Shown: positions 24,793 through 61,349 of the stretch, one piece after another
Layout of the letters: each line of letters opens with the position of its first letter
Numbering within the stretch: the first letter of the stretch is position 1
DNA from: Vicinamibacterales bacterium
Lineage (GTDB): Bacteria > Acidobacteriota > Vicinamibacteria > Vicinamibacterales > UBA8438
Length of the DNA: 64,000 nucleotides
Direction: 5' to 3'
NCBI GenBank assembly: GCA_965200475.1
Contig: CBDAUL010000007.1
Coordinates: forward strand, 242,516-306,515
Position numbers and translations under genes: made by a program
The notes under the pieces: generated by a model
Told to the model about the DNA's origin: nothing
The model's database searches: none
Seen by the model: only the letters and a program-made list of their open reading frames with translations

Positions 24793-25488
24793 GCATCCGC
24801 GCTACAGCACGCGCCACCAGGGCACGCCGAGCACGCCCTCCGCGATCCACTGCGTATCGCGGCCGCCGTGCAGCAGCAGGGCGCCGGCGAACCGGTCCGG
24901 GTACTCCTCGCGAAACAGGCGCAGGCCGCGGGCGTCCGCCAATCCGGGACTTGCGGCGGCCTTCACCTCGATTGCCAGCAACCGTCCGCCGGCCTCGACG
25001 ACGAAGTCCACCTCGCGATCCGTCGTCGTCCGCCAGAAGAGCACCTCGGGCGCGGGCGCCTGGCCGTCGCGCCACACCAGCAGGTCGAGCAGCACGAGAT
25101 TCTCCAGGTGCTCGCCCGCAACGGCGCTCGCGCCGCTCAGCCAGAGCGCCAGGGCCGGGTCGCTCCAGTAGAGCTTCGGGCTCTTGACCAGGCGCTTGCT
25201 CCGGTTCACCGAGTACGGCGGCAGGCGCACCAGTTGGAAGGACGTTTCCAGCAGGTTGAGATGGCGTTGCACCGTGGTGCGCGGCAACTGGAGGTCGCGG
25301 CCGATGTCGGCCTGGTTGAGCAGACCGCCGAGGCGCTGGCTCGCCGCGCGCATGAGACGGCGAAAATCGACCAGGTTGCCCACCGCGGACAGGGATTGCA
25401 GATCGCGCTCCAGGTAGGTGCGCACGTAGCCGTCGAACCACAGCGACCGGCCGTCGTCGCCGCCGAGCTCCACCGCCGGTGTGGGTAG

Positions 25489-26979
25489 CAGCCCGAGGTA
25501 GAAGTCGGTTCGCCGAGCCCTGCTGTTCAGGCCGCTTGGCGATGAGTAATTGAGCCGACGGGCGCCGGCGGTGTCCATTTGAGGCCCCAGGGACGCGTCA
25601 GACGCCCCCAGTGGTCGATCAGGCGGTCGATCAGGCGGAAAATCGCCGAAAAAGCCCGCCCCTGCAGGCTCCGGGGCGTACCGATGCCGGTCTGGCGCCG
25701 CAGGAGCATCCCGATGTTGCAGGCAGCCGCCTGGATCAGCACCCGCTTGCGGACATTCTCGTGACCGCGCACAAACACCCGACGCATGCCCCCCGTCTCA
25801 TACATGTGCGCGAAAGTACGCTCCACCATCTCGCCCCGGCAGCGTTGCAGGCGACGACCCCGCCGCCCGTGCACACGCCGCCGGTTCGCATACAACGCCT
25901 GCTGCGCAGCACGCTTCGCCGGCGGCGTCTCTCCCGTCTTCTTGTCCTGCCAGACGCGCCGGCCGCGCTCGGGCTCCGATACGTAGCTCCGAACCCCGAC
26001 CTCGCCGAGAGCCACCAGCGTCTCGTCGCTGTGATACCCCTTGTCAGCGACCAGCTCTTCGACCCCTCGACCGTCCGGCTGCACCAACTCCACCTGCTCG
26101 GCCGCCGCGGTCAGCGTCTCCGGCAGCGTGGCCGTATCGCCGTCCGATGCATCCTGCACCGTCACCGACACGATGGCCCCCGTCTCCATGTCGACCCCGT
26201 GCTCGACCTTGTGAGCCAAGTGCGTCCGGCCGTCCTTCATCTTCGCGATCTTCGCGTCCGGGTCCTGCGGCGATTGCCAGTCCTTGTTCGACGTCTTCTT
26301 GTTCTTGCGAGACCGGTCGAACCGAGCCAGATCCGCCCGCGTCGGGGTCTCCACCCCAGACGCCTCCGCCAAGCGCCGAAGGAACGCTTCGTAGCTTTCT
26401 CCCGTGTCCCGCCGCTCGATGCTCCGCATCGCCGCGTTCGCTTCCAGCGTCGTCGCATCGACGCCCACCGTCTTCCCCTTGACCAGACCCGCCGCCGACA
26501 ACTGCTCGAGAACCCACGTGAATACCGCCTCGTGCGTCTCGTCGTCGATCAGACGACGCGTCCGCGACAGCGTCGAGTGGTCCGGCGCCGCCTCGGTCAC
26601 ATCCAGGTCCAGGAACGACCGCAGGCTCAGAGAGTCGGCCACCCGCCACGCAATCCCACGCTCCGAAGACAGACCCTCGAAGTAGCCGATGAACAGCATC
26701 CGGAAATACCGCCCAGGACGCAGGCTCGGCCGCCCCATCCGCGTCGCGTAGAACACCGCGCACAGCCCCTCGACGAACGCGTCGAACCCGGCCTCGTCCA
26801 GAACCCGGTTCAGACGCTCGAAGAACGGATGCCCCGCGTTCGTCGGCAAATCCGCCGTCGTCACCCACAGCGGCGCCCCTGGTCGCGCGGCCGGTTTCTT
26901 GCCCATCGCCATAGCTGTTCAGTCTACGGGCTCGATCGCGCCCAGGCCAGGCCCGTTCCCCGACTTTCACCACGGGCTG
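25489..26979 (-). mobile_element. IS5/IS1182-superfamily insertion sequence, copy 1 (1491 bp)
   Basis: It appears identical to 47896-49386 (offset 22407; every ORF translation is identical in all frames). Imperfect terminal inverted repeats are CAGCCCGAGGTAGAAGTCGG and CAGCCCGTGGTGAAAGTCGG (17/20). Confidence 0.9.
25527..26912 (-). CDS. DDE transposase (DUF772 N-terminal domain, IS5/IS1182 type)
   Basis: 461 aa. Motifs GRPSLRPGRYFRMLFIGYFEGLSSERGIAWRVADSLSLRSFL, PDHSTLSRTRRLI, VGVDATTLEANAA, ADKGYHS and VERTFAHMYETGGMRR. Confidence 0.9.
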   Translation of the reverse strand: MAMGKKPAARPGAPLWVTTADLPTNAGHPFFERLNRVLDEAGFDAFVEGLCAVFYATRMGRPSLRPGRYFRMLFIGYFEGLSSERGIAWRVADSLSLRSFLDLDVTEAAPDHSTLSRTRRLIDDETHEAVFTWVLEQLSAAGLVKGKTVGVDATTLEANAAMRSIERRDTGESYEAFLRRLAEASGVETPTRADLARFDRSRKNKKTSNKDWQSPQDPDAKIAKMKDGRTHLAHKVEHGVDMETGAIVSVTVQDASDGDTATLPETLTAAAEQVELVQPDGRGVEELVADKGYHSDETLVALGEVGVRSYVSEPERGRRVWQDKKTGETPPAKRAAQQALYANRRRVHGRRGRRLQRCRGEMVERTFAHMYETGGMRRVFVRGHENVRKRVLIQAAACNIGMLLRRQTGIGTPRSLQGRAFSAIFRLIDRLIDHWGRLTRPWGLKWTPPAPVGSITHRQAA

Positions 26980-47527: not shown

Positions 47528-47895
47528 CGGCGGCGCGAGCGCCGGACAACGGGTTTCAGGATGGCGCGAGGGAGCGGATGGGCCGGCGAGCGTCGAGGGT
47601 TGCCGCCGATCTGGCCGGCCGCGAAAGCCAGGTAGCGATGCCTGCGGACCGACTGCTGCACGCGCGGCTGGGCCACTCGGCGAGGGTGTCGAAGCTGTCG
47701 GACCTGGCGTTCCGGGTGTGGACGACCTACGTGCTGGCGGCGGACGACTTCGGGGTGATGCGGGCGGACGCCGTGGCGTTCCAGGCGGCGCACGACGCGC
47801 TACGTGAACGTCCGGGCGAGGAGGTCGCGACGAGCATCGAGCGGCTGGTCGAGGTGGGCCTGGTGGCGGCGTTCGAGCACCAGGGGGCACGTTAT

Positions 47896-49386
47896 CAGCC
47901 CGAGGTAGAAGTCGGTTCGCCGAGCCCTGCTGTTCAGGCCGCTTGGCGATGAGTAATTGAGCCGACGGGCGCCGGCGGTGTCCATTTGAGGCCCCAGGGA
48001 CGCGTCAGACGCCCCCAGTGGTCGATCAGGCGGTCGATCAGGCGGAAAATCGCCGAAAAAGCCCGCCCCTGCAGGCTCCGGGGCGTACCGATGCCGGTCT
48101 GGCGCCGCAGGAGCATCCCGATGTTGCAGGCAGCCGCCTGGATCAGCACCCGCTTGCGGACATTCTCGTGACCGCGCACAAACACCCGACGCATGCCCCC
48201 CGTCTCATACATGTGCGCGAAAGTACGCTCCACCATCTCGCCCCGGCAGCGTTGCAGGCGACGACCCCGCCGCCCGTGCACACGCCGCCGGTTCGCATAC
48301 AACGCCTGCTGCGCAGCACGCTTCGCCGGCGGCGTCTCTCCCGTCTTCTTGTCCTGCCAGACGCGCCGGCCGCGCTCGGGCTCCGATACGTAGCTCCGAA
48401 CCCCGACCTCGCCGAGAGCCACCAGCGTCTCGTCGCTGTGATACCCCTTGTCAGCGACCAGCTCTTCGACCCCTCGACCGTCCGGCTGCACCAACTCCAC
48501 CTGCTCGGCCGCCGCGGTCAGCGTCTCCGGCAGCGTGGCCGTATCGCCGTCCGATGCATCCTGCACCGTCACCGACACGATGGCCCCCGTCTCCATGTCG
48601 ACCCCGTGCTCGACCTTGTGAGCCAAGTGCGTCCGGCCGTCCTTCATCTTCGCGATCTTCGCGTCCGGGTCCTGCGGCGATTGCCAGTCCTTGTTCGACG
48701 TCTTCTTGTTCTTGCGAGACCGGTCGAACCGAGCCAGATCCGCCCGCGTCGGGGTCTCCACCCCAGACGCCTCCGCCAAGCGCCGAAGGAACGCTTCGTA
48801 GCTTTCTCCCGTGTCCCGCCGCTCGATGCTCCGCATCGCCGCGTTCGCTTCCAGCGTCGTCGCATCGACGCCCACCGTCTTCCCCTTGACCAGACCCGCC
48901 GCCGACAACTGCTCGAGAACCCACGTGAATACCGCCTCGTGCGTCTCGTCGTCGATCAGACGACGCGTCCGCGACAGCGTCGAGTGGTCCGGCGCCGCCT
49001 CGGTCACATCCAGGTCCAGGAACGACCGCAGGCTCAGAGAGTCGGCCACCCGCCACGCAATCCCACGCTCCGAAGACAGACCCTCGAAGTAGCCGATGAA
49101 CAGCATCCGGAAATACCGCCCAGGACGCAGGCTCGGCCGCCCCATCCGCGTCGCGTAGAACACCGCGCACAGCCCCTCGACGAACGCGTCGAACCCGGCC
49201 TCGTCCAGAACCCGGTTCAGACGCTCGAAGAACGGATGCCCCGCGTTCGTCGGCAAATCCGCCGTCGTCACCCACAGCGGCGCCCCTGGTCGCGCGGCCG
49301 GTTTCTTGCCCATCGCCATAGCTGTTCAGTCTACGGGCTCGATCGCGCCCAGGCCAGGCCCGTTCCCCGACTTTCACCACGGGCTG
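47896..49386 (-). mobile_element. IS5/IS1182-superfamily insertion sequence, copy 2 (1491 bp)
   Basis: Identical to 25489-26979 as far as can be compared. Flanks read cgTTAT|IS|ttTTATctg, suggesting a TAT/TTAT target duplication, though the junction is not clean. Confidence 0.9.
47934..49319 (-). CDS. DDE transposase (identical to 25527-26912)
   Basis: The 461-aa translation is identical to copy 1. Confidence 0.9.
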   Translation of the reverse strand: MAMGKKPAARPGAPLWVTTADLPTNAGHPFFERLNRVLDEAGFDAFVEGLCAVFYATRMGRPSLRPGRYFRMLFIGYFEGLSSERGIAWRVADSLSLRSFLDLDVTEAAPDHSTLSRTRRLIDDETHEAVFTWVLEQLSAAGLVKGKTVGVDATTLEANAAMRSIERRDTGESYEAFLRRLAEASGVETPTRADLARFDRSRKNKKTSNKDWQSPQDPDAKIAKMKDGRTHLAHKVEHGVDMETGAIVSVTVQDASDGDTATLPETLTAAAEQVELVQPDGRGVEELVADKGYHSDETLVALGEVGVRSYVSEPERGRRVWQDKKTGETPPAKRAAQQALYANRRRVHGRRGRRLQRCRGEMVERTFAHMYETGGMRRVFVRGHENVRKRVLIQAAACNIGMLLRRQTGIGTPRSLQGRAFSAIFRLIDRLIDHWGRLTRPWGLKWTPPAPVGSITHRQAA

Positions 49387-49773: not shown

Positions 49774-49943
49774 CACGCACGCGCGTACGAAACGGCTAAC
49801 GGCTTATGGCTAAAGGGAGAGGGGGGTGCGGGGGGAGAGGGACCGCGGCGGCAGGCGAAGGCGTCGCTGCGGGGCCGCGCCGGCGTGGCGCGGTCGACGG
49901 AGTCGCGCGAGGCGTACGACGCCGGCATCAAGCGGGCGAGGCG

Positions 49944-50666
49944 ATGAGCGTGGGGTGCGGACGGTGCGCGGGGACGCCGGGCTGGGAGCCGGTGGAGGTC
50001 GACGGCGTGAGGCGTCTGCGGCGCTGCGGCTGCTGGACGGCGGCGCACGCCGCCCCGCCCTCGGTGCCGCACGAGTTCCGGGAGGCGCGGTGGTCGACGT
50101 GGCGGAAGACGGGGGACAACCGGCACGCGCTCGACGAGGCGCGGGCCTTCGCGCGGGCCGGCGACGGCGGGCGGGACCTGTTCCTGTGCGGGCCGGTGGG
50201 CACCGGCAAGACGCGGCTGGCCTGCACGGTGCTCAACGAGCTGTGGCGCTCGGGGGAGCGGTCGATGGCGTTCGAGCGCGTCCCGATGCTGCTCTATCGG
50301 CTCCAGCCTCGCGGTGCGGCGGCGGAGACGGCCGAGGAGTTCAACCGGCTGGTGGCGGTGAAGCTGCTGGTGCTGGACGACCTGGGGGCGGAGCGGGAGG
50401 CGGCGACGGACTACACGCGGCGGACGCTGCTGATGCTCTACGAGGCGCGGCACGACGCGGGGCGGCGGACGGTGTGGACGTCGAACAAGACGCCGAGCGG
50501 GGTGGGCGCGTTCATGGCGGACGACCGGCTGGCGAGCCGGATCGCGGGGCGCTGCCGGGTGGTCGGGCTGGAGGGGCGCGACTGGCGGCTGGCGGGCCGG
50601 GGCGCGCAGCGCGGGGCGGAGCCCGAGCCCGCCGGAGCGGGACGGGCCGTGGAGCGGACGAGATGA
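49944..50666 (+). CDS. DnaC/IstB-like helicase-loader ATPase
   Basis: Walker A LCGPVGTGKTRLA, Walker B LLVLDDLGAE, and an N-terminal Cys cluster CGRC..CGC. The ATG is residue 47 of ORF 49806-50666. Confidence 0.8.
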   Translation: MSVGCGRCAGTPGWEPVEVDGVRRLRRCGCWTAAHAAPPSVPHEFREARWSTWRKTGDNRHALDEARAFARAGDGGRDLFLCGPVGTGKTRLACTVLNELWRSGERSMAFERVPMLLYRLQPRGAAAETAEEFNRLVAVKLLVLDDLGAEREAATDYTRRTLLMLYEARHDAGRRTVWTSNKTPSGVGAFMADDRLASRIAGRCRVVGLEGRDWRLAGRGAQRGAEPEPAGAGRAVERTR

Positions 50667-52976: not shown

Positions 52977-53096
52977 GGTACGGCTGGCCCGCCGGACCGT
53001 CCCTCCCGATTCCCCGTTCCTCCCGGTTCGTCCCTGCGTCCCGGTCCCTGTCACCGTTGCGCCTGACCGCGGCGCGTCACGGCACCTAGTGGGTCG

Positions 53097-53375
53097 ATGG
53101 TGCTGTTGAAGCAGACCGTCGCGATCGTTGCGGCACTGCTGCTGGTGCTCGCGTGGGTGGGCTGCACTCTCCAGGAGCCCGCCGCCGGCATGCAGTCGGC
53201 CGATCACGCCGACTGCGACGCCTGTCACTTCCGGCACCTCTCGGTAGTCGAGACCGAACGCACGCCCGCGCCGTCCGAGCTGGATCCCGTCGCCGACGCC
53301 GTCGCCTCCACCCACGCTCACGGCGAGCCGGGCATGGCGCTCGGCATCCACCCCACGCGCGGCCCGCCCGCGTAG
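53097..53375 (+). CDS. small exported Cys/His protein (hypothetical; same style as 41385-41771)
   Basis: Lipobox-like LVLAWVGC, the motif HADCDACHFRH, and a tail GIHPTRGPPA. Confidence 0.45.
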   Translation: MVLLKQTVAIVAALLLVLAWVGCTLQEPAAGMQSADHADCDACHFRHLSVVETERTPAPSELDPVADAVASTHAHGEPGMALGIHPTRGPPA

Positions 53376-53648
53376 CCGTCCTGTCGCACAGCGTCTCGTC
53401 GCCGCGTCGCGCGGCGACGACCGGGAACGCCGCGGCCCCGTCCGCCTCACGGACGCGTCCCGCAAGCCCCGTGACGGCGTCAACGCCGTTCACGGCGCAC
53501 CCGGTCCGCAAGGACCGATGGCTGCGGGCTGCTGGCAGACAGGGCGTGGCCGCGTTGAAACACGAATACGTGCAAGGGCGACGCGTCGGCCCGGGCGGGA
53601 CTCCCGCCGGCCCGCCGCGCCCCGACCGGCCGGATTCCATCGACTGAC

Positions 53649-53691
53649 TTGACAACGGAGCCCTCCGGAGCGTGCCACCGCTCCGGAGGGC
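53649..53691 (+). promoter_or_regulatory. TTGACA hexamer followed by a perfect 13-bp hairpin upstream of the adhesin gene
   Basis: TTGACA at 53649-53654. The hairpin GCCCTCCGGAGCG-tgccac-CGCTCCGGAGGGC spans 53660-53691. No convincing -10 element was found. Confidence 0.25.
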
Positions 53692-53803
53692 AATCGAACG
53701 AGCAGCGACCGTCGAGACGCTCAAGAGCCTGAACAGACGTGCGCCGTCCGACGGCGGGATTCTAGTCGAGACGGCGCACGCGTGCCTACGAAAGGACACG
53801 TCG

Positions 53804-55666
53804 ATGCGCCGTGCGTTCCGCAACCCGGTCGGCAGGGAGTCCCGGCTCGCCGCGCTCGCGGCTGAACCGGCTACCTCGACTCGCCCTGCGCGCCGACTCG
53901 CTCGGCTGCCCGGTCTCGTCCTGCTTGCCGCGGCGCTCGTCCTGTGGGCCGGCTCAGCCTTGGGGCAGACCGTGACCATCACACACACGGGCAGCGCCCC
54001 GCTAAAGGACGGCAAAATACAACTTGTGGAAGGCGGGGCTTCCACGACTTTCCAGGTCTCCCTCAGCGCGGACTTCGTCGCGGATATCAAGGCCAACTAT
54101 CCCCTAGTAACCGCCGCGACGGGAACGCGGTTGGGAATGCAGCTGTGGACATTTCGGTCCTCCTCCAACGTGACCTGGACCACCACGGGCCGCACGTCCT
54201 TCGACCGGACCAATGAATACGACATCAGCCACAGTGGAACGTCCCTCAAGAGTGGCTATGGGCGCACAGCCACATTATTCGGAACTGCAGTATCGGAACG
54301 ACTGCGCTCTTTCATCCCGCTCACCGCGCGTAACACCGACGGCTCAACAGGCAATTGGGCCGCCATAGACAGCTTTCCCGTCAGCTCATTCCCGAACACC
54401 TTTACCATTAAGGCCGAGACGGACAGCGTGTATTTCGAACGGGATGAATCCATAACGGTCAAGGTCGCGGTTTTCGTGCAGGGGGAGAGGGCCCAACCGA
54501 GCTTTACCACTTTTTTTATTTTCAGCGATGAATTGACGTTCGATCTCGTGGATGGCGCGCTTCCCGACCCGACGGGCAAGCCCACGATGCCGGCCAACCT
54601 CACGGCCACCGCGGGCAAGGGCGCGGTCACGCTCACCTGGGATGCCGTTGACACGACCAGCAGCAACACGAACCGGCTGAACGACGCCCAGATCACCAAG
54701 CACCAGGTCCGGCAGTCCACGGACGGCGGCACCAGCTACGGGACGTGGACCGACATCCCCAACAGCGGCTACGGCGGGGTCCACGCCACCACTTACACCA
54801 TCGGGAGCCTGACCGACGGCACGGAATACACCTTCCAGGTGCGTGCGGTGAATGGCTGCACCACGACCGCGGGCTGCGGGGAGAGCGACCCGGCCACCGC
54901 AATCATGGCGACGCCCGACGCCGATGACTTCGCGCCGCCCGCGGGGCTCACGGCCACCGCGGGCAATACCCAGATCACGCTCGACTGGACCGATCCCGAC
55001 GATGCCGCCATTCTGCATTACGAGTACCAGCGGAAGGTGGGCTCCGCCGCCTTCGGGGCCTGGACGCAGCTTTACCCCAGCAGCGCGACCACCACGAGTT
55101 ACCGGTTCACCGGACTGGACAACGGCACGCCCTACAGCTACCGCATCCGGGCGCAGAGGAACGTCGGGGCCGGCCTCGCCTCGAACGCGGTCACGGCCAC
55201 GCCGCGGGGGGGCGCTGCCCGCCGCGCCCGTGCTCACGGCCACCCCGCGCAACGGCGCCGTCACCCTGAGCTGGCCCGACCCTGTCGACGCCAGCGTCAC
55301 GTACGAGTATCAGTACAAGATCGGCGCCGAGGTCTATCCGCCGTGGGAGACCGCACCGCTGCCGCGTACCATCGGCGCCACCCTGCAGATTCCGGTGGGC
55401 GGCCTGACCAACGGCACGCCGCATACCTTCCGTATCCGGGCGGTGAACGCGGACGGCAGTGCGACCTCGAACGAGGCGTCCGCCACGCCCGTAGCCGGCG
55501 TGCCCGCCAAACCCACCGGCCTGAAGACCTGGGTGGGCCCACGCGGCCATCAGAGAGCTCGCTGGCTGGATTGGGACTGGGTCGCGGACCCGAGCATCCT
55601 GCACTACGAGTACACGACGGACGACGGCCGGACCTGGTCCACGCTCGCTTCAGTTCCGCAGAGTAG
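53804..55666 (+). CDS. giant adhesin, 5' reading-frame segment (genuine coding up to the G7 tract at 55206-55212)
   Basis: Starts at MRRAFRNPVG.. with a long signal region ending LLAAALVLWAGSALGQ. A ~200-aa lower-GC N-terminal domain is followed by two FN3 modules (LTATAGKGAVTLTWD.., LTATAGNTQITLDWTD..YSYRIRAQ). After ..VTATPRGG this frame becomes Arg-rich nonsense until its stop at 55666. Confidence 0.8.
   Translation: MRRAFRNPVGRESRLAALAAEPATSTRPARRLARLPGLVLLAAALVLWAGSALGQTVTITHTGSAPLKDGKIQLVEGGASTTFQVSLSADFVADIKANYPLVTAATGTRLGMQLWTFRSSSNVTWTTTGRTSFDRTNEYDISHSGTSLKSGYGRTATLFGTAVSERLRSFIPLTARNTDGSTGNWAAIDSFPVSSFPNTFTIKAETDSVYFERDESITVKVAVFVQGERAQPSFTTFFIFSDELTFDLVDGALPDPTGKPTMPANLTATAGKGAVTLTWDAVDTTSSNTNRLNDAQITKHQVRQSTDGGTSYGTWTDIPNSGYGGVHATTYTIGSLTDGTEYTFQVRAVNGCTTTAGCGESDPATAIMATPDADDFAPPAGLTATAGNTQITLDWTDPDDAAILHYEYQRKVGSAAFGAWTQLYPSSATTTSYRFTGLDNGTPYSYRIRAQRNVGAGLASNAVTATPRGGAARRARAHGHPAQRRRHPELARPCRRQRHVRVSVQDRRRGLSAVGDRTAAAYHRRHPADSGGRPDQRHAAYLPYPGGERGRQCDLERGVRHARSRRARQTHRPEDLGGPTRPSESSLAGLGLGRGPEHPALRVHDGRRPDLVHARFSSAE
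55206..55212 (+). other. G7 homopolymer at the frame junction of the adhesin gene
   Basis: ACGCCGCGGGGGGGCGCTGCCC. Upstream coding is in the frame of ORF 53672 and downstream coding in the frame of ORF 54852. One G more or two fewer would fuse TATPRGG to ALPAAPVLTATPRNGAVTLSW. Confidence 0.8.
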
Positions 55667-58600
55667 ATCTGTGTACAACCTGCCTGCGAACGAATTCCTC
55701 TCCGATGAATACCGCGTTCGCATCCGCGCGGTCAACGCCCTGGGACCGGGCCCGGCCTCCGACCTGGCCGTCGAGACCGATGTGGAAGACCGACGGCCGG
55801 CTGACTACCGGTATGTAGATAGAAACCAGATCTCGCTGGAATGGGACGCGACCACCAAGAAGGCCACCCTGGTCTGGGACGCGCCCATGCCCAGCGACTA
55901 TAGGTGGTGGCATGTCACTTTCTACGACCGCCCCGGATTCCATACCAGCGCTCAGGCGGATGCCTGGGAAACGGATCTGCGCATCGGGACGACCCGGTAC
56001 GAGATTCCTGCGACGTTCAACGGCGGTGACACTATCACCGTATGGATCGTCGGCTGCCCCTTCCGCAGATGCGAAGTACGTCGTCGGTTGCACACCGGTT
56101 TCTTAACCGACTTCGTGGTGGGCGGCCCGAATACGGCCGTCACGGGGTTTTCGGCCACCCCGGGCGACGCGCGCATCGAGCTCGCCTGGGACGCCCCGGC
56201 TGGTGGCGGCATCACCCATTTCGAGTACCAGGTGGCATGGGCACGGAGAGGCATCGGGACCCTCCCGGGGAGCCCCCCGGATCACAACGACATTCCCCCG
56301 GGAGGCAAAACCAGCCACACCGTCACGGTGATCAACAACGCGGAAGGCGTCACGGACGGCTTCCCCCCGGTCAACGGGGAACCCTACGCCTTCCGGCTGC
56401 GTGCCGCGAACGCCAACGGGGGCGGGCCATGGACCGCGTGGACCCAGTATGTCGTGCCGCTGGCCGAAGGGGTGCCGGCGGCCCCGACCGGGATAGTGAT
56501 TCTGACCAGCGGCGCCGGAGGCGACGGCCACGGCCACGGACATGGGGATGTCCCACCCGGGCTGACGACCTGGGACGACCCGCGGGATCCCAGCATCACC
56601 AAGTATCAGACTCGGAACGCTGGGAAGTGGGAGGACATTCCCGGCTCCGACGCGACCACCACCGGCGTAAACGAGAGAATAGACAGTCTCCGAGCGGTCA
56701 ACGCCAACGGCGTAGGGCCGGCGGGGTGGCCCACAACCGTACACTCGCCGGCGCCGGCCCAGCCCACGGGCTTGCTGGCCGCACCCGCAAACGGCCGCGT
56801 GACGCTGACCTGGGACGACCCGGGAAAGGGCGTCTACATCGAGTTCTATCGCTACACCACGGACGGCGGGGAGACGTGGACCCAGATTCCGGCCAGCGAA
56901 TCGACCGTGCAAGGCCAGTTCACCCGCTACACCGTCGGGAGCCTCACCAACGGGAAGGCCTACACCTTCGGGATCCAGGCGGAGAACGACTCGGGCGCCA
57001 GCCCGGTCTCCGCGGCGGTGACCGCCACCCCGCTGGGCGGGGCTCCGGCCAAGCCCACGGGCCTGTCGGCCGCGCCGGGCAACGCCGGGGCGACGCTCAC
57101 CTGGGACAACCCGCACGACGCCAGCATCACCGGGTACCAGGTCAAGCAGGGCGACGAGGACTGGGCCGATATCACGGGCAGCGACGACAGCACGACCAGC
57201 CATACGGTCGGGAGCCTGACCAACGGAACCGCCTACACGTTCCGGATCCGCGCGGTGAACGACCACGACGGCGACAACACGGACGACCCGGGCCCCGCCT
57301 CCGACGCCGTCACCGTCACGCCCGGCGTGCCCACGGCCCCGGCCAGCCTGGTTGCGGCCCCGGGCGACGCCGAGGTGACGCTCACCTGGACGGCGCCGGC
57401 CAGCACCAACGGCAGCGCCGTCATCGGCTACGAGTACACCTCGAACGCCGACGCGGCCACGCCCACCTGGACGGACGTCCCGGACAGCGGCTCGGGCGGC
57501 GCCAACGAAGCCGGGTACACGGTGACCGGCCTGGTCAACAACACCACCTACGCCTTCGCGGTGCGGGCGGAGAACGCCAACGGGCAGGGGGCGGCCACCC
57601 CGACCGTGCGGGCCACGCCCGTGCATCCCGACGCGCCGCAACGACCGGCGGGATTGAGGGCGAATCCGGGTAACCAGGAGGTGCGGCTCACCTGGACGTT
57701 GCCGAGCTTCCATCATCCGGTGACCGCCTACGAGTACCGGCAGAGCACGGACGGGGGCACGACGTGGAGCCCGGACTGGACGGCGATCACCGACAGCGAC
57801 GCCGCTACCACCGAGCATACGCTCACCGACCTCGCCAACGGCACGACCTACACCTTCGAGCTGCGTGCCCTCAAGGACGGCACCGCGGGACCCTCGGCGC
57901 GGGCGCAGGCCACCCCGGGCGGCGCCGCGGCCAACCAGGTGATAGACCGTGGGAGCAGCGGTCAGTTGACCACCCCGGCCGGCGATACATACACGGTCAC
58001 TCAGCTTTCCCTCCCGACCGGGCTCAACTGGCGCATCATCGTGCCCGGCACCACGGAGATCCCCGCCAAGGCCAAGTTCACCGTGCGCTCCCTGCAAGGC
58101 GGCACCCCCGAGACCTCGTCGCGGTACAGATTCACCAGCACAGGCCAGGAAGGCCTGGACATCGTGGTGGACCCGCCCCTCCCCGCCGGGGCGCAGGTCT
58201 GCCTGGAGCCCACCCCGCTGCTCCGCCAGGAAGCTGGCGGCCGGCCGCTTCGGGTGCTGCGCTACGACGGCACGCGCTGGACGCCGCTGCCCACCACCAC
58301 CGACGGCGGCATGGTCTGCGGCACGACCCCGGCTTTCTCCGCCTTCGTCCTGGGCTACGAGGCCGCCGGCCCCAGCGGCGCTGGTGGGGGGGAGCGGGAC
58401 ACGCCGCGAGGGACGAACGCCGCGCCCGAGGCGGCCGAGTCGCTTGCGCCGCGGACCGTGCCGGCAGGCACGACGAGCGAGCCGCTCGACCTGACGCCGT
58501 ACTTCGACGACCCCGACGGCGACCGGCTCACCTTCGCGGCGGTGTCGGAGGACGCCGGCGTCGCCATCGCCGACCTGCCGCGGGGCAGCAACTGGCTGAC

Positions 58601-61304
58601 GCTCCGCGGCGTGGCGGCAGGCGAAGCCGTCATCGTCGTGACGGCCCGCGACCCCGGCGGCGAGCGGGTCAGCCAGTCCCTCACGGTGACGGTGCGGACG
58701 ATAGCCGCGCCCGAGGTGGCGCAGCCGCTGCCGCCGCGGACCCTGCTGGCCGGCGAGACGAGCGAGCCGCTGGAGCTGACCCCGCACTTCCGTGACCCCG
58801 ACGACGACCCGCTCACTTTCGCGGCGGTGTCGTACGACGCCGGCGTGCTCGAGGCCGAGGTGGCCGAGGGCGGCAGCCGGCTGACCCTCCGCGCCGTGGC
58901 GGCGGGCGCAGCCGTCGTCATCGTGACGGCCACCGACCCCGACGGCGAGCAGGCCAGCCAGCCCATGACGGTGACGGTGCGGACGAACGGCGCGCCCGAG
59001 GCCGCGGAGCCGCTGCCGCCGCAGACCCTGCTGGCGGAGACGACGAGCGAGCCGCTGGACCTGACGCCGTACTTCCACGACCCCGACGGCGACCCGCTCA
59101 CCTACGCGGCGGCGTCGGACAACGCCGACGTCGCCGTCGCCGAGGTGGCCGAGGGCGGCAGCGAGCTGACCCTCTGCGCCGTGGCAGTGGGCGAAGCCTC
59201 CATCGTGGTGACGGCCCGCGACCCCTACGACGCGGAGGCCAGCCAGCCACTGACGCTCACCGTGCGGACCAACGCCGCGCCCGAGGTGGCCGAGCCGCTC
59301 CTGGCGCAGACCCTGCTGGTCGGCACGGCGAGCGAGCCGCTCGACCTGACGCCGTATTTCCACGACCCCGACGGCGACCCGCTCACCTACGCGGCCGTGT
59401 CGGACAACGCCGGCGTCGCCGTCGCCGAGGTGGCCGAGGGCGGCAGCGAGCTGACCCTCCGCGCCGTGGCGGCGGGCGAGGCCGTCGTCGTCGTGACGGC
59501 CACCGACCCGTTCGACGCGGAGGCCAGCCAGCCGCTGACGCTCACCGTGCGGACCAACGCCGCGCCCGAGGTGGCCCAGCCGCTGCCGGCGCAGACCGTG
59601 CTGGCCGGCACGGCGAGCGAGCCGCTCGACCTGACGCCGTACTTCGACGACCCCGACGGCGACCCGCTCACCTACGCGGCGGTGTCGTCGAACCCCGAGG
59701 TGGCGACCGCCGGCGTGGCGGGCGACCTGCTCACGCTCACCGGCGTGGGGGCGGGCGCCGTGGTGGTGACGGTCACGGCCCGCGACCCCCACGGCGGCGA
59801 GGTCGGCCAGACGGTCACGGTGACGGTCACGGCGGCCGACCCGGCCTGGGTGAAGGCGTGGGCGGCGCGGTTCGGACGCACGGTGTCCGGGCACGTGCTC
59901 GACGGCGTGCAGGAGCGGCTCCGCGCAGTGCCGCAGCCCGGTTTCCAGGCCACCCTCGGGGGCCATCAGCTCGGCGGCATCAGCGAGGAGGCGGCGCAAG
60001 AATTCGGCAACTGGCAGCTCGGCGGCCGCGCGGCGTTCCAGCGCGAGCTCGAGCTGCTCGCCGGCTGGACCGACGACGAGCAGCAGATGGGCAACGGCGG
60101 TCCGCAGCAGGGGTCGACGGCCCGCGACCTGTTCACTTCGTCGGCCTTCTCGCTGACGGTCGGCAACGCGGAGGAAGGCGGCGGCGGCGGCTTCGGGGCG
60201 GTGTGGGGACGGGGCGCCGTGTCGCACTTCGGCGGACAGGACGGCGCGCTGTCGCTCGACGGCGAGGTGGCGACCGGCATGGTGGGGATCGACTGGGTGT
60301 CGAGGCGCTGGCGCACCGGGCTGGCCCTGGCCATGAGCCGCGGCAGCGGCGGCTACAGCGCGGGGGTCCACAGCGGCGAGATCGAGTCGAAGCTGACGGG
60401 CCTGTTCCCCTGGGTGGGCTACGACGTGACCGACCGCATATCGGTCTGGGCGGCCGCGGGCTACGGCGCCGGCGTGCTGACCCTGACGCCGGAGAACGAA
60501 GACGCGCTGACGGCCGAGCTCGGGTTGAGCATGGTGGCGGCCGGGGCCCGCAGCGAGCTGCTGACGCTGCGGCAACTGGGCGGCGTCATGCTGGCGCTGG
60601 AGACCGATACGCGCCTGACGCGCACCACCACCGGCGCCATCGCCGGCCTCGAGGCCACCGAGGCGAGCGTCTGGCAGCGGCGCCTGGGGCTGGAGGGGTC
60701 GCGCCCCCTCGCGCTGGGCGGGCGGCTGTCGCTCAGGCCAAGCGTCGAGGTGGGGCTGCGCTACGACGGCGGGGACGCCGAGACCGGCGCCGGCATGGAC
60801 GTGGGCGCGGGCCTCGGCTTCGCCGACTCGGGGACCGGGCTGGCCGTGGACGTGCACGTGCGGACGCTGCTGGTGCACGAGGCCGAAGGGTTCTCCGAGC
60901 GGGGCATGGCGCTGTCGGTGAGCTACGACCCGACGCCGTCGACGCCGCTGGGCGTCACCGCGCGGGTGGCGCCGTCGTGGGGCGGGCAGGCGCAGAGCGG
61001 GGTCGCGGCGCTGTGGGGCCGCGAGACGATGGCGGGCATGGCGCACGGCGGCGCCGCGCAGGGCTACCGGCTCAACGGCGAGGTCGGCTACGGCCTGCGG
61101 GTGGGCAGCCGCTTCGTGGGGACCCCGCGGGCCGGCTTCTCCACCTCGGAGCACAGCCGGGACTACCGGGTCGGCTACGGCCTCGGGGTGCTCGAGACGG
61201 GCGGCCTGCTCGTCGAGGTGGGCGTCGACGCGCTGCGCAGCGAGAGCCCGCTGGCGGGCGGGGCCAGCAACGCGCTGCGCGGCCAGGCTTCGCTGGGCTG
61301 GTGA
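55206..61304 (+). CDS. giant adhesin, 3' reading-frame segment: FN3 array, cadherin-like repeats, autotransporter beta-barrel
   Basis: About 9 further FN3 modules run to about 57925 (xLxAxPGxxxVTLTWxxP..I.GY.Y...DGG.TW..I....TT.YTVTGL.NGT.YTF.VRA.N). An unassigned ~160-aa domain follows. Five 93-95-aa repeats with DPDGDPLTY span 58416-59834. A linker plus barrel spans 59836-61301 (..FGAVWGRGAVSHFGG..GLALAMSRG..VGLRYDGGD..) and ends GQASLGW. Confidence 0.85.
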   Translation, partial: GGALPAAPVLTATPRNGAVTLSWPDPVDASVTYEYQYKIGAEVYPPWETAPLPRTIGATLQIPVGGLTNGTPHTFRIRAVNADGSATSNEASATPVAGVPAKPTGLKTWVGPRGHQRARWLDWDWVADPSILHYEYTTDDGRTWSTLASVPQSRSVYNLPANEFLSDEYRVRIRAVNALGPGPASDLAVETDVEDRRPADYRYVDRNQISLEWDATTKKATLVWDAPMPSDYRWWHVTFYDRPGFHTSAQADAWETDLRIGTTRYEIPATFNGGDTITVWIVGCPFRRCEVRRRLHTGFLTDFVVGGPNTAVTGFSATPGDARIELAWDAPAGGGITHFEYQVAWARRGIGTLPGSPPDHNDIPPGGKTSHTVTVINNAEGVTDGFPPVNGEPYAFRLRAANANGGGPWTAWTQYVVPLAEGVPAAPTGIVILTSGAGGDGHGHGHGDVPPGLTTWDDPRDPSITKYQTRNAGKWEDIPGSDATTTGVNERIDSLRAVNANGVGPAGWPTTVHSPAPAQPTGLLAAPANGRVTLTWDDPGKGVYIEFYRYTTDGGETWTQIPASESTVQGQFTRYTVGSLTNGKAYTFGIQAENDSGASPVSAAVTATPLGGAPAKPTGLSAAPGNAGATLTWDNPHDASITGYQVKQGDEDWADITGSDDSTTSHTVGSLTNGTAYTFRIRAVNDHDGDNTDDPGPASDAVTVTPGVPTAPASLVAAPGDAEVTLTWTAPASTNGSAVIGYEYTSNADAATPTWTDVPDSGSGGANEAGYTVTGLVNNTTYAFAVRAENANGQGAATPTVRATPVHPDAPQRPAGLRANPGNQEVRLTWTLPSFHHPVTAYEYRQSTDGGTTWSPDWTAITDSDAATTEHTLTDLANGTTYTFELRALKDGTAGPSARAQATPGGAAANQVIDRGSSGQLTTPAGDTYTVTQLSLPTGLNWRIIVPGTTEIPAKAKFTVRSLQGGTPETSSRYRFTSTGQEGLDIVVDPPLPAGAQVCLEPTPLLRQEAGGRPLRVLRYDGTRWTPLPTTTDGGMVCGTTPAFSAFVLGYEAAGPSGAGGGERDTPRGTNAAPEAAESLAPRTVPAGTTSEPLDLTPYFDDPDGDRLTFAAVSEDAGVAIADLPRGSNWLTLRGVAAGEAVIVVTARDPGGERVSQSLTVTVRTIAAPEVAQPLPPRTLLAGETSEPLELTPHFRDPDDDPLTFAAVSYDAGVLEAEVAEGGSRLTLRAVAAGAAVVIVTATDPDGEQASQPMTVTVRTNGAPEAAEPLPPQTLLAETTSEPLDLTPYFHDPDGDPLTYAAASDNADVAVAEVAEGGSELTLCAVAVGEASIVVTARDPYDAEASQPLTLTVRTNAAPEVAEPLLAQTLLVGTASEPLDLTPYFHDPDGDPLTYAAVSDNAGVAVAEVAEGGSELTLRAVAAGEAVVVVTATDPFDAEASQPLTLTVRTNAAPEVAQPLPAQTVLAGTASEPLDLTPYFDDPDGDPLTYAAVSSNPEVATAGVAGDLLTLTGVGAGAVVVTVTARDPHGGEVGQTVTVTVTAADPAWVKAWAARFGRTVSGHVLDGVQERLRAVPQPGFQATLGGHQLGGISEEAAQEFGNWQLGGRAAFQRELELLAGWTDDEQQMGNGGPQQGSTARDLFTSSAFSLTVGNAEEGGGGGFGAVWGRGAVSHFGGQDGALSLDGEVATGMVGIDWVSRRWRTGLALAMSRGSGGYSAGVHSGEIESKLTGLFPWVGYDVTDRISVWAAAGYGAGVLTLTPENEDALTAELGLSMVAAGARSELLTLRQLGGVMLALETDTRLTRTTTGAIAGLEATEASVWQRRLGLEGSRPLALGGRLSLRPSVEVGLRYDGGDAETGAGMDVGAGLGFADSGTGLAVDVHVRTLLVHEAEGFSERGMALSVSYDPTPSTPLGVTARVAPSWGGQAQSGVAALWGRETMAGMAHGGAAQGYRLNGEVGYGLRVGSRFVGTPRAGFSTSEHSRDYRVGYGLGVLETGGLLVEVGVDALRSESPLAGGASNALRGQASLGW
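58416..59834 (+). repeat. five tandem 285-bp (95-aa) cadherin/dystroglycan-like repeats within the adhesin
   Basis: The units start NAAPEAAES, IAAPEVAQP, NGAPEAAEP, NAAPEVAEP and NAAPEVAQP. Each contains SEPLDLTPYF(D/H)DPDGDPLT(F/Y)AAVS and ..VVTA(R/T)DP..LT(L/V)TVRT. Units 3 and 4 are the most similar (about 80% aa identity). Confidence 0.85.
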
Positions 61305-61312
61305 GACGAGGT

Positions 61313-61349
61313 GTCGAGCACGCGGCGACTGAACCTGCTCGTGCTCGAC
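61313..61349 (+). terminator. 10-bp stem hairpin 9 nt after the adhesin stop
   Basis: GTCGAGCACG-17 nt-CGTGCTCGAC. The loop is large and there is no U-tract, so it is weak as an intrinsic terminator. Confidence 0.3.

Follow-up and report, generated by a model that had tools for sequence, protein, structure and literature searches.

A giant FN3 and Big_9 repeat protein with a divergent autotransporter-like barrel, encoded across a frameshift in a Vicinamibacterales contig

The window analyzed here is a 64,000-nucleotide stretch of contig CBDAUL010000007.1 from a Vicinamibacterales bacterium, a high-GC, Gram-negative acidobacterium. At positions 53804-61304 of its + strand lie two overlapping open reading frames (ORFs), which an earlier sequence-only reading had joined into one giant adhesin made of FN3 and cadherin-like beads with a C-terminal autotransporter barrel. 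The locus raises the question of whether these frames are one gene and, if so, by what route so long a protein would be brought to the cell surface and held there. They were found to be a single gene in two frames, and its product is probably a giant surface protein of about 2,500 amino acids (aa), anchored in the outer membrane on the type V, autotransporter-like plan. A distant relationship to the classical autotransporters, and a similar mode of action, were partly supported by sequence comparison and structural modeling, while the protein appears to depart from them in barrel length, linker, and type of passenger. All residue numbers refer to the frame-corrected protein.

The two ORFs span 53672..55666 and 54852..61304. 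The switch between them was located in a run of seven guanines (G7) at 55206-55212, where, with both frames read, FN3-like sequence passes from the first frame into the second at ...NAVTATPRGG / ALPAAPVLTATP.... With one G deleted, the reading frame runs unbroken over 2,499 codons; it opens with the ATG at 53804 and closes with the stop codon at 61302-61304. An intact orthologue of 2,495 aa (P0125) is encoded on a 510-kb metagenomic contig, L001. It was found in a 90% cluster shared with the closest homologue of the window's C-terminal domain, and it is like the window protein in its N-terminus (MRRAF.NPVGR...), its domain order, and its C-terminus. At the break site, the window's 37 nucleotides (nt) correspond to 36 in this orthologue and in a second one, at locus L002; the readings there are TATPRGAPPAAP and TATPRAAPPAAP, respectively, and TATPRGALPAAP in the window minus one G. 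Hence, the two frames represent one gene with a +1 insertion, and rejoining them yields the protein of about 2,500 aa that had been proposed. The same place holds a G4 and a G3 in the two orthologues, which are one base shorter there, and the homopolymer is hence not conserved. Two other readings of the overlapping frames were discarded: that of two separate genes, because the orthologues encode one continuous protein, and that of programmed frameshifting, because a slippery motif is missing and the site is not conserved in the orthologues.

Along the gene, the following features were identified, with the basis of each given in parentheses.

53804-53965, + strand: start codon and extended signal region, residues 1-54 (read from the translation; conserved in P0125)
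53966-54586, + strand: orphan N-terminal domain, residues 55-261, 207 aa (lower GC content, no family match)
54587-57914, + strand: FN3 array, residues 262-1370 (Pfam fn3 and a module hidden Markov model, HMM)
55206-55212, + strand: G7 homopolymer with the +1 frameshift (sequence and orthologue comparison)
56520-56539, + strand: (GGCCAC)3.3 microsatellite encoding GHGHGH in the degenerate FN3 module, residues 905-914 (Tandem Repeats Finder, TRF)
57915-58364, + strand: middle domain, a beta-sandwich of about 150 aa, residues 1371-1520 (AlphaFold, Foldseek, alignments)
58411-59843, + strand: five tandem 95-aa Big_9 / tandem-95 repeats with DPDGDPLTY motifs, residues 1545-2013 (TRF, self-BLAST, Pfam, NCBIfam, repeat HMM)
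59841-59924, + strand: predicted alpha-helix of 28 residues with the motif AWAARFGRTVSGHVLDGVQERL, residues 5-32 of the C-terminal domain (AlphaFold, confidence score pLDDT about 90)
59925-60143, + strand: Gly-rich linker, predicted to be disordered, residues 33-105 of the C-terminal domain (pLDDT below 50)
60144-60926, + strand: barrel core, collinear with the autotransporter beta-domain, residues 106-366 of the C-terminal domain (AlphaFold, Foldseek, homologues against PF03797)
60927-61304, + strand: family-specific C-terminal extension of about 125 aa, to the terminal W and then the stop (alignments A1 and A3, AlphaFold)

The candidate anchor is the C-terminal domain, residues 2009-2499 (491 aa), which ends in ...ALRGQASLGW, as had been read from the translation before. 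An AlphaFold model built on the alignment of its family had a mean pLDDT of 71.6 and contained 12 long antiparallel strands at domain residues 121-366, where the pLDDT was 80-95. When this model was compared with the PDB by Foldseek, the top 11 matches were all to type Va barrels, either alone or as part of an autotransporter, with E-values from 7.8e-9 (NalP, with a target-normalized TM-score, TMt, of 0.64) to 4e-6 and a TMt of up to 0.70 for BrkA. The top matches included NalP, EspP, Hbp, EstA, BrkA, a complex of EspP with the beta-barrel assembly machinery (BAM), and AaaA, while AIDA-I was found at rank 15. Entries composed only of the autotransporter barrel matched at a TMt of 0.53-0.70 over about 260 contiguous columns, whereas barrels of 14, 16, 18, and 22 strands reached only 0.2-0.35.

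The autotransporter family was also reached by sequence, through homologues of the window's domain. The Pfam model PF03797 was matched by 3 of 24 diverse family cores (domain residues 116-368, the first twelve strands), and by 2 of 52 family members in a separate scan. Two homologue cores, 56% and 52% identical to the window's core, scored above the cut-off of 26, at 45.7 bits (profile positions 1-223 of 255) and 43.5 bits (1-207 of 255); a third matching core spans profile positions 7-240. As these homologues pass PF03797 and the window's domain does not, the homology is transitive and not direct. The first 250 or so residues of the barrel are a divergent, collinear homologue of the autotransporter beta-domain. 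The C-terminal autotransporter barrel of the sequence-only reading therefore stands in part: its predicted structure is closest to the type Va barrels and homologous cores match PF03797, but a direct search with the last 480 aa or so found no autotransporter model in Pfam or NCBIfam at E=10, the match covers only the first 250 aa or so of the barrel region, and the extension of about 125 aa has no counterpart.

The elements on either side of the core are conserved as well. Most cross-phylum tblastn matches start at query residues 3-10 and thereby include the helix, and the linker, with its pLDDT below 50, is nevertheless 97% identical to that of P0125. The extension opens with a Pro-rich stretch that hardly varies (family consensus SYxPTPSTPLG..APSWGG..ALW..ETM), followed by five to six amphipathic strands and a nearly invariant terminal W; residues 366-413 were modeled at a pLDDT below 50 and the strands at 69-82. 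At the junction of core and extension, window positions 60915-61037 encode SYDPTPSTPLG..APSWGG..ALWGRETMAG, which is nearly invariant across the barrel family and likewise has a pLDDT below 50. As read from the sequence, the terminal W and the alternating hydrophobic residues resemble an outer-membrane beta-signal. None of 25 family members matched Pfam at E=10 in this region (the last 128 residues), and no PDB sequence matched it. An hhalign comparison of the extension (A3) with the core (A4) paired 61011-61193 with about 60600-60795 at a probability of 2% and an E-value of 0.022, which is not significant, with DALW...RL..E...G.P..G in common. At the sequence level there are thus hints that the extension may stem from an internal hairpin duplication of the core.

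The opposite end of the protein carries a signal region of 54 residues, composed of a charged lead of about 30 aa, the hydrophobic core LPGLVLLAAALVLWAGSALG, and then Q (ALG/Q). It is 81% identical to that of P0125, which bears out the long signal region claimed earlier, and no extended signal peptide region (ESPR) motif was seen by eye within it. To judge from its sequence, the protein thus has the Sec signal peptide that is expected of a type Va autotransporter. The N-terminal domain that follows is the low-GC domain of about 200 aa described before, whose GC content at 54000-54499 is 0.58, compared with about 0.70 in the flanking sequence. It matched no Pfam or NCBIfam model at E=10 and only four of 5.8 billion proteins, all of them fragments of close relatives, and a local jackhmmer search confined it to the close subfamily of the window protein. 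This orphan domain is likely to be the distal tip of the stalk and a binding module. Some of its stretches (FTIKAETDSVYFERDESITVKV) look Calx-beta-like by eye and were matched by no model.

Between these ends, the passenger is a chain of beta-sandwich beads. Pfam fn3 (PF00041) matched at an E-value of 2.7e-60 and 201 bits, against a gathering cut-off of 25, in six stretches arranged in tandem. An HMM built from the nine clear modules, which recovers those nine by construction, added a degenerate module at 922-973 (independent E-value, iE, 1.4e-8) and a non-significant one at 681-740 (iE 0.12). The array is hence present as proposed, with the count of about 11 modules slightly generous at nine clear, one degenerate, and one doubtful. 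The GDGHGHGHGD insert noted in the degenerate module is encoded by the (GGCCAC)3.3 microsatellite; its GHGHGH is absent from both orthologues, P0125 included, and is probably a recent slippage expansion. The five 95-aa cadherin-like repeats were also recovered. TRF found a 285-bp period in 4.5 copies at 58411-59687, with a more divergent fifth copy to about 59827, and Pfam Big_9 matched five stretches (E 2.6e-23, 83.2 bits, cut-off 23.6). Cadherin_4 reached 31.5 bits (cut-off 25.1), Cadherin_5 fell just below its cut-off (25.7 against 26.5 bits), and the NCBIfam tandem-95 model NF012211 gave 51.6 bits, below its whole-protein cut-off of 90. By analogy, Ca2+ bound at the DPDGD motifs probably stabilizes these repeats. 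Throughout the passenger, Pfam found fn3, Big_9, and related beta-sandwich families only and no beta-helix family, in agreement with a passenger of a kind other than the classical beta-helix.

Divergence from the orthologue varied strongly along the protein. The amino acid identity to P0125 was 98% in the barrel, 97% in the linker, and 94% in the helix, and it fell to 85-92% in the Big_9 repeats and 48-61% in the central FN3 modules. Similarly, the ratio of nonsynonymous to synonymous substitution rates (dN/dS) was 0.14 in the barrel, 0.19 in the helix and linker, 0.43 in the Big_9 repeats, 0.54-0.90 in the FN3 modules, and 1.1 in the middle domain. This gradient, drawn from one sequence comparison, fits a constrained membrane anchor with an exposed and fast-evolving passenger. 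The synonymous rate itself ranged from 0.07 to 0.44 along the gene, and such variation suggests that the gene may be a recombination mosaic. The most diverged part is window positions 55500-56750 (FN3 modules 4-7), with 48-61% identity, a dS of 0.44, and a dN/dS of 0.90; the barrel has a dS of 0.07.

On the autotransporter-like plan, the protein would be exported through the Sec pathway, as in type V secretion, and its C-terminal barrel would be inserted into the outer membrane by BAM. The helix and linker would then thread the pore, so that the passenger would emerge with its C-terminus first, and the Big_9, FN3, and other beads would fold one by one outside the cell and thereby drive export. 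Intimin and invasin are believed to be exported in the same manner, driven by their Ig-like beads as these fold in sequence outside the cell. The outcome would be a stalk of about 60-70 nm (an estimate based on the usual lengths of such domains), with the fast-evolving N-terminal domain displayed for adhesion.

Several results weigh against this reading. The 491-aa domain itself matched no Pfam or NCBIfam model at E=10, and a profile of 52 family sequences found no autotransporter among the PDB sequences. In those searches, profiles of the whole domain (A1), the core (A4), and the extension (A3) gave only matches at chance level; beta-lactamase, PMS1, and G-beta were seen across the profile searches. 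Comparison of the family profiles with the E. coli Ag43 barrel by hhalign gave a probability of about 1%, which is not significant, although the template was a single sequence and too weak for such a test. The model has about 18 strand segments rather than 12, as the extension of 125 aa follows the core, and about 70 residues predicted to be disordered separate the helix from the first strand, unlike in classical autotransporters. A mean-field direct coupling analysis of 298 barrel sequences (effective number, Meff, about 106) gave an adjacent-strand signal barely above background, in which closure of strand 1 on strand 12 and on strand 18 were indistinguishable. Finally, the gene is out of frame in the present assembly.

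The strongest alternative for the C-terminal domain is that it serves as a mere membrane anchor or forms a different barrel of 16-18 strands, with the passenger surfacing in some other way or staying in the periplasm. The 18 or so strand segments, the conserved extension without an autotransporter counterpart, the linker of about 70 aa between helix and barrel, and the failure of the window's domain to match PF03797 would all be expected of such a protein. However, the closest folds found are those of 12-strand autotransporter barrels, at a TMt of 0.6-0.7, and barrels of 16, 18, and 22 strands are far worse, at 0.2-0.3; the homologue cores are collinear with PF03797; from its signal peptide through the long passenger and the helix to the C-terminal barrel, the protein has the autotransporter layout; and no dedicated secretion genes were seen beside the gene in the window, L001, or L002. 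The alternative is therefore unlikely. The reading as a giant repeat adhesin of the LapA/SiiE type, secreted by a type I system, or as a pair of separate genes can be set aside almost entirely: bead-on-string stalks of FN3 or cadherin-like domains are typical of adhesins of the type I secretion system (T1SS) and the assembly does show two ORFs, but the protein carries a signal peptide at its N-terminus and a membrane barrel at its C-terminus, no RTX repeats were detected in it by Pfam, its neighbors are insertion sequence (IS), TetR, and helix-turn-helix (HTH) genes with no T1SS genes nearby, and the orthologues are continuous.

A separate question is what the frameshift means for the gene. 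The break falls after FN3 module 2, and the product as written would be without its anchor. Between a real lesion and an artefact of the assembly the chances are about even, with a small share left for phase variation. One reading is that of a real and recent pseudogene, in which the G7 run is genuine, translation stops at 55666, a secreted fragment of about 620 aa without the anchor is made, and the adhesin is being lost. In its favor, the conserved neighboring genes show no frame-breaking indels relative to L002, and errors are thus not general in the assembly; an IS insertion has broken the L002 orthologue too; the window holds scars of a further translocator copy at 6.8-7.65 kb; and the locus is rich in IS. 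Against it, the 2,030 codons past the shift stay open, and the break is in a homopolymer, where assembly errors concentrate. The dN/dS is also alike upstream and downstream of the shift (0.62 and 0.66), with 0.14 in the barrel, so the frameshift, if real, is recent, and inactivation must be very recent.

Equally probable is a homopolymer error in sequencing or assembly, with the gene intact and functional in the organism. The difference is a single base of length within the G7 run, removal of one G brings the reading into agreement with the orthologues residue for residue, and the rest of the 7.5-kb ORF is intact, with its anchor under purifying selection. This reading is opposed by the absence of any other frameshift in the conserved neighbors compared and by the scarcity of similar runs: only four G or C runs of at least seven occur in the 64 kb, and one of them (58386) lies in the same gene without disrupting it. 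A switch of phase variation through slipped-strand mispairing, with G6 ON and G7 OFF, is very unlikely. Contingency loci of Neisseria and Campylobacter switch by homopolymer length, and here the coding region for a surface protein does contain a homopolymer, for which the assembly shows the OFF length. However, the tract is short, and a conserved tract of varying length, as contingency loci have, was not found, with G7 in the window set against G4 and G3 in the orthologues.

The surroundings of the gene show traces of past rearrangement. By self-comparison of the DNA, two short copies of translocator sequence were found elsewhere in the window.

6792-6909, - strand: translocator scar of 119 nt from the helix region, 92% identical to 59879-59997
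7589-7649, - strand: translocator scar of 61 nt from one barrel strand, 92% identical to 60486-60546

The two are not collinear, and both lie inside a stretch of about 5 kb that is absent from the orthologous region of L002. The translocator fragments reported at 6.8-7.65 kb are thus present, but as scars of 119 and 61 nt in disrupted order and not as a second translocator. The same inserted segment carries a gene for a DUF222 and HNH endonuclease of 656 aa (3904-5874, - strand). Two IS copies of 1.49 kb (25486-26979 and 47893-49386), each with a DUF772 and DDE_Tnp_1 transposase of 462 aa, are 99.93% identical, and an IstB-like gene (49806-50663) lies directly upstream of the adhesin; an HTH_38 gene is also found at the locus. 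In the window, the PQQ-repeat genes that flank the adhesin in L002 are inverted and lie about 42 kb from it (1993-11253 versus 53021-61322), which implies that a large segment was inverted or otherwise rearranged, with a breakpoint near 53.0 kb. In L002 itself, positions 8129-10000 comprise an N-terminal fragment of 153 aa (P0277) and then rve/HTH_21 (rve/DDE) transposase genes, after which the remaining 2,289 codons follow. The orthologue there is split by an IS insertion, and that copy is hence disrupted too.

The C-terminal domain belongs to a large family. A word-index search returned more than 1,000 matches, mostly unnamed and mostly with Calx-beta (PF03160) passengers, and a HMMER scan of 1.84 billion cluster representatives (50% identity) returned 8,939 at E<=1e-3 and 4,306 at E<=1e-30. 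Among the full-length matches listed, the domain was at the extreme C-terminus in nearly all, and most were 1,000-4,000 aa long. In a scan of GTDB species representatives, the closest relatives were found in metagenome-assembled genomes (MAGs) of Vicinamibacterales, at up to 60% identity, and others in MAGs of Longimicrobiales, Latescibacterota, Binatia, Entotheonella, Thermodesulfobacteriota, Alphaproteobacteria, and Gammaproteobacteria. Genes of the family occur in several copies and often sit close together: in many genomes (L004, L006, L014, L033, L046, L048, L052, L063, and L074), two or three of them lie within 17 kb of each other.

The association with FN3 modules was not peculiar to the window. 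At least one module was found in 27 of 98 barrel-bearing ORFs from 81 fetched loci, and arrays of 9-11 modules occurred in Longimicrobiales (L021 and L027), in Micropepsaceae (L035), and in L003, where the protein has 12 Big_9 repeats in addition. FN3 plus barrel is therefore a theme of the family, whereas the full combination of N-terminal domain, FN3, middle domain, and Big_9 was limited to about eight proteins. The architecture, described earlier as unusual, is so relative to the characterized autotransporters but is common within the protein's own family. The literature on autotransporters with Calx-beta or FN3, or in sponges, did not describe it, although coverage was incomplete and this is weak evidence of novelty. 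The set of taxa found is one that we take to be typical of marine-sponge microbiomes, and a sponge origin of the window is an inference from it and not a result. Proteins with FN3 and cadherin domains are reported to be enriched in sponge microbiomes and are believed to have been transferred laterally (PMC10947273), and FN3, cadherin, and Ig-like proteins with signal peptides are also reported from Poribacteria (PMC3909097).

The domain of about 160 aa that had been left unassigned after the FN3 array is present and now has weak fold matches of the ZU5/GAIN type. Its AlphaFold model is an all-beta sandwich (pLDDT 81), for which the best PDB match by Foldseek was the ZU5 domain of ankyrin (E 1.9e-3, query-normalized TM-score, TMq, 0.47), followed by the GAIN domains of the adhesion G protein-coupled receptors (GPCRs) BAI2, BAI3, and CD97 and by NLRP1. 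Eight homologues share the motif x-[FML]-S-x-F-[VA]-L-G-Y (FS-AFVLGY in the window), in which the Ser is invariant, falls in the turn between the last two predicted strands, and precedes a hydrophobic strand; two Cys are also invariant. ZU5, FIIND, and GAIN domains self-cleave at that turn (HFS, SF/S, and HL/T, respectively). The likeness to the ZU5/GAIN(GPS)/FIIND superfamily consists of these fold matches and the placement of the Ser. In contrast, the fold similarity is weak (E 2e-3 or worse, TMq below 0.5), and the position two residues ahead of the Ser holds A, D, N, G, or S in the middle-domain homologues and no conserved His. Pfam gave no match to the domain at E=10, and its profile (A5) gave only chance-level matches among PDB sequences. 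A ZU5/GAIN-like identity of the modeled domain is, then, a lead and not a finding. Large surface proteins of bacteria have been noted to contain autopeptidase domains of the ZU5 type (PMC3482391).

A further proposal, which is tentative and more doubtful than the autotransporter-like plan itself, is that the translocator represents an undescribed subclass of type V secretion. Its 12-strand core, derived from an autotransporter, would be enlarged or capped by the extension of about 125 aa, would be joined to its helix by the long linker, and would be specialized for passengers of Ig-like beads (Calx-beta, FN3, and Big_9), having spread laterally over at least six phyla of probably sponge-associated bacteria. 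In the subfamily of the window protein, the GAIN/ZU5-like module could self-cleave at FS, with the FN3 arm held non-covalently and released in a force-sensitive manner, as in the adhesion GPCRs.

The window gene itself is an ordinary, out-of-frame member of this large barrel family, and the wider interest lies in the family. Its profile is matched by roughly 8,900 clusters at 50% identity, and no Pfam or NCBIfam model recognized it in the window protein. The family joins chains of Calx-beta, FN3, and cadherin-like beads to a classically oriented barrel to which a further conserved piece is added at the C-terminus. Export of such passengers by the barrel, if real, would widen the range of cargo and of barrel design in type V secretion. 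The "eukaryotic-like" FN3 and cadherin proteins of host-associated metagenomes would also gain a concrete route of surface display, and annotation pipelines would gain a domain that is now missed. Those described from sponge symbionts have the same kinds of domains as the window protein, and the papers concerned count domains and describe no autotransporter-like anchor for them.

Among the known secretion systems, the giant adhesins of the T1SS (LapA, SiiE, and MpIBP type) resemble the window protein in their long, rod-like stalk of Ig-like or cadherin-like domains, in DxDxD-type motifs similar to Ca-binding sites, and in a distinct tip. However, the window protein is without RTX, a C-terminal T1SS signal, or adjacent ABC, membrane fusion protein (MFP), and TolC genes, and it has a Sec signal and a barrel of its own instead. 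The type Ve proteins intimin and invasin share the passenger of tandem Ig-like beads, but their orientation is opposite, with an N-terminal barrel and a C-terminal passenger; no homology signal to their barrels was found, and the window protein has no LysM or Big_1 domains. Characterized classical autotransporters almost always export a beta-helix, and passengers of Ig-like beads are known mainly from type Ve. From type Va (NalP, EspP, Hbp, BrkA, and AIDA-I; PF03797), the window protein differs in a passenger of FN3, Big_9, and other beta-sandwich beads without a beta-helix or autochaperone, in lying below PF03797 detection, in the roughly 70 residues from helix to barrel, and in the conserved extension of about 125 aa, with five to six predicted strands, past the end of the classical barrel. 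With type Va it shares the same order of parts, namely a signal peptide, a passenger, a predicted alpha-helix, and a C-terminal barrel that ends in an aromatic residue.

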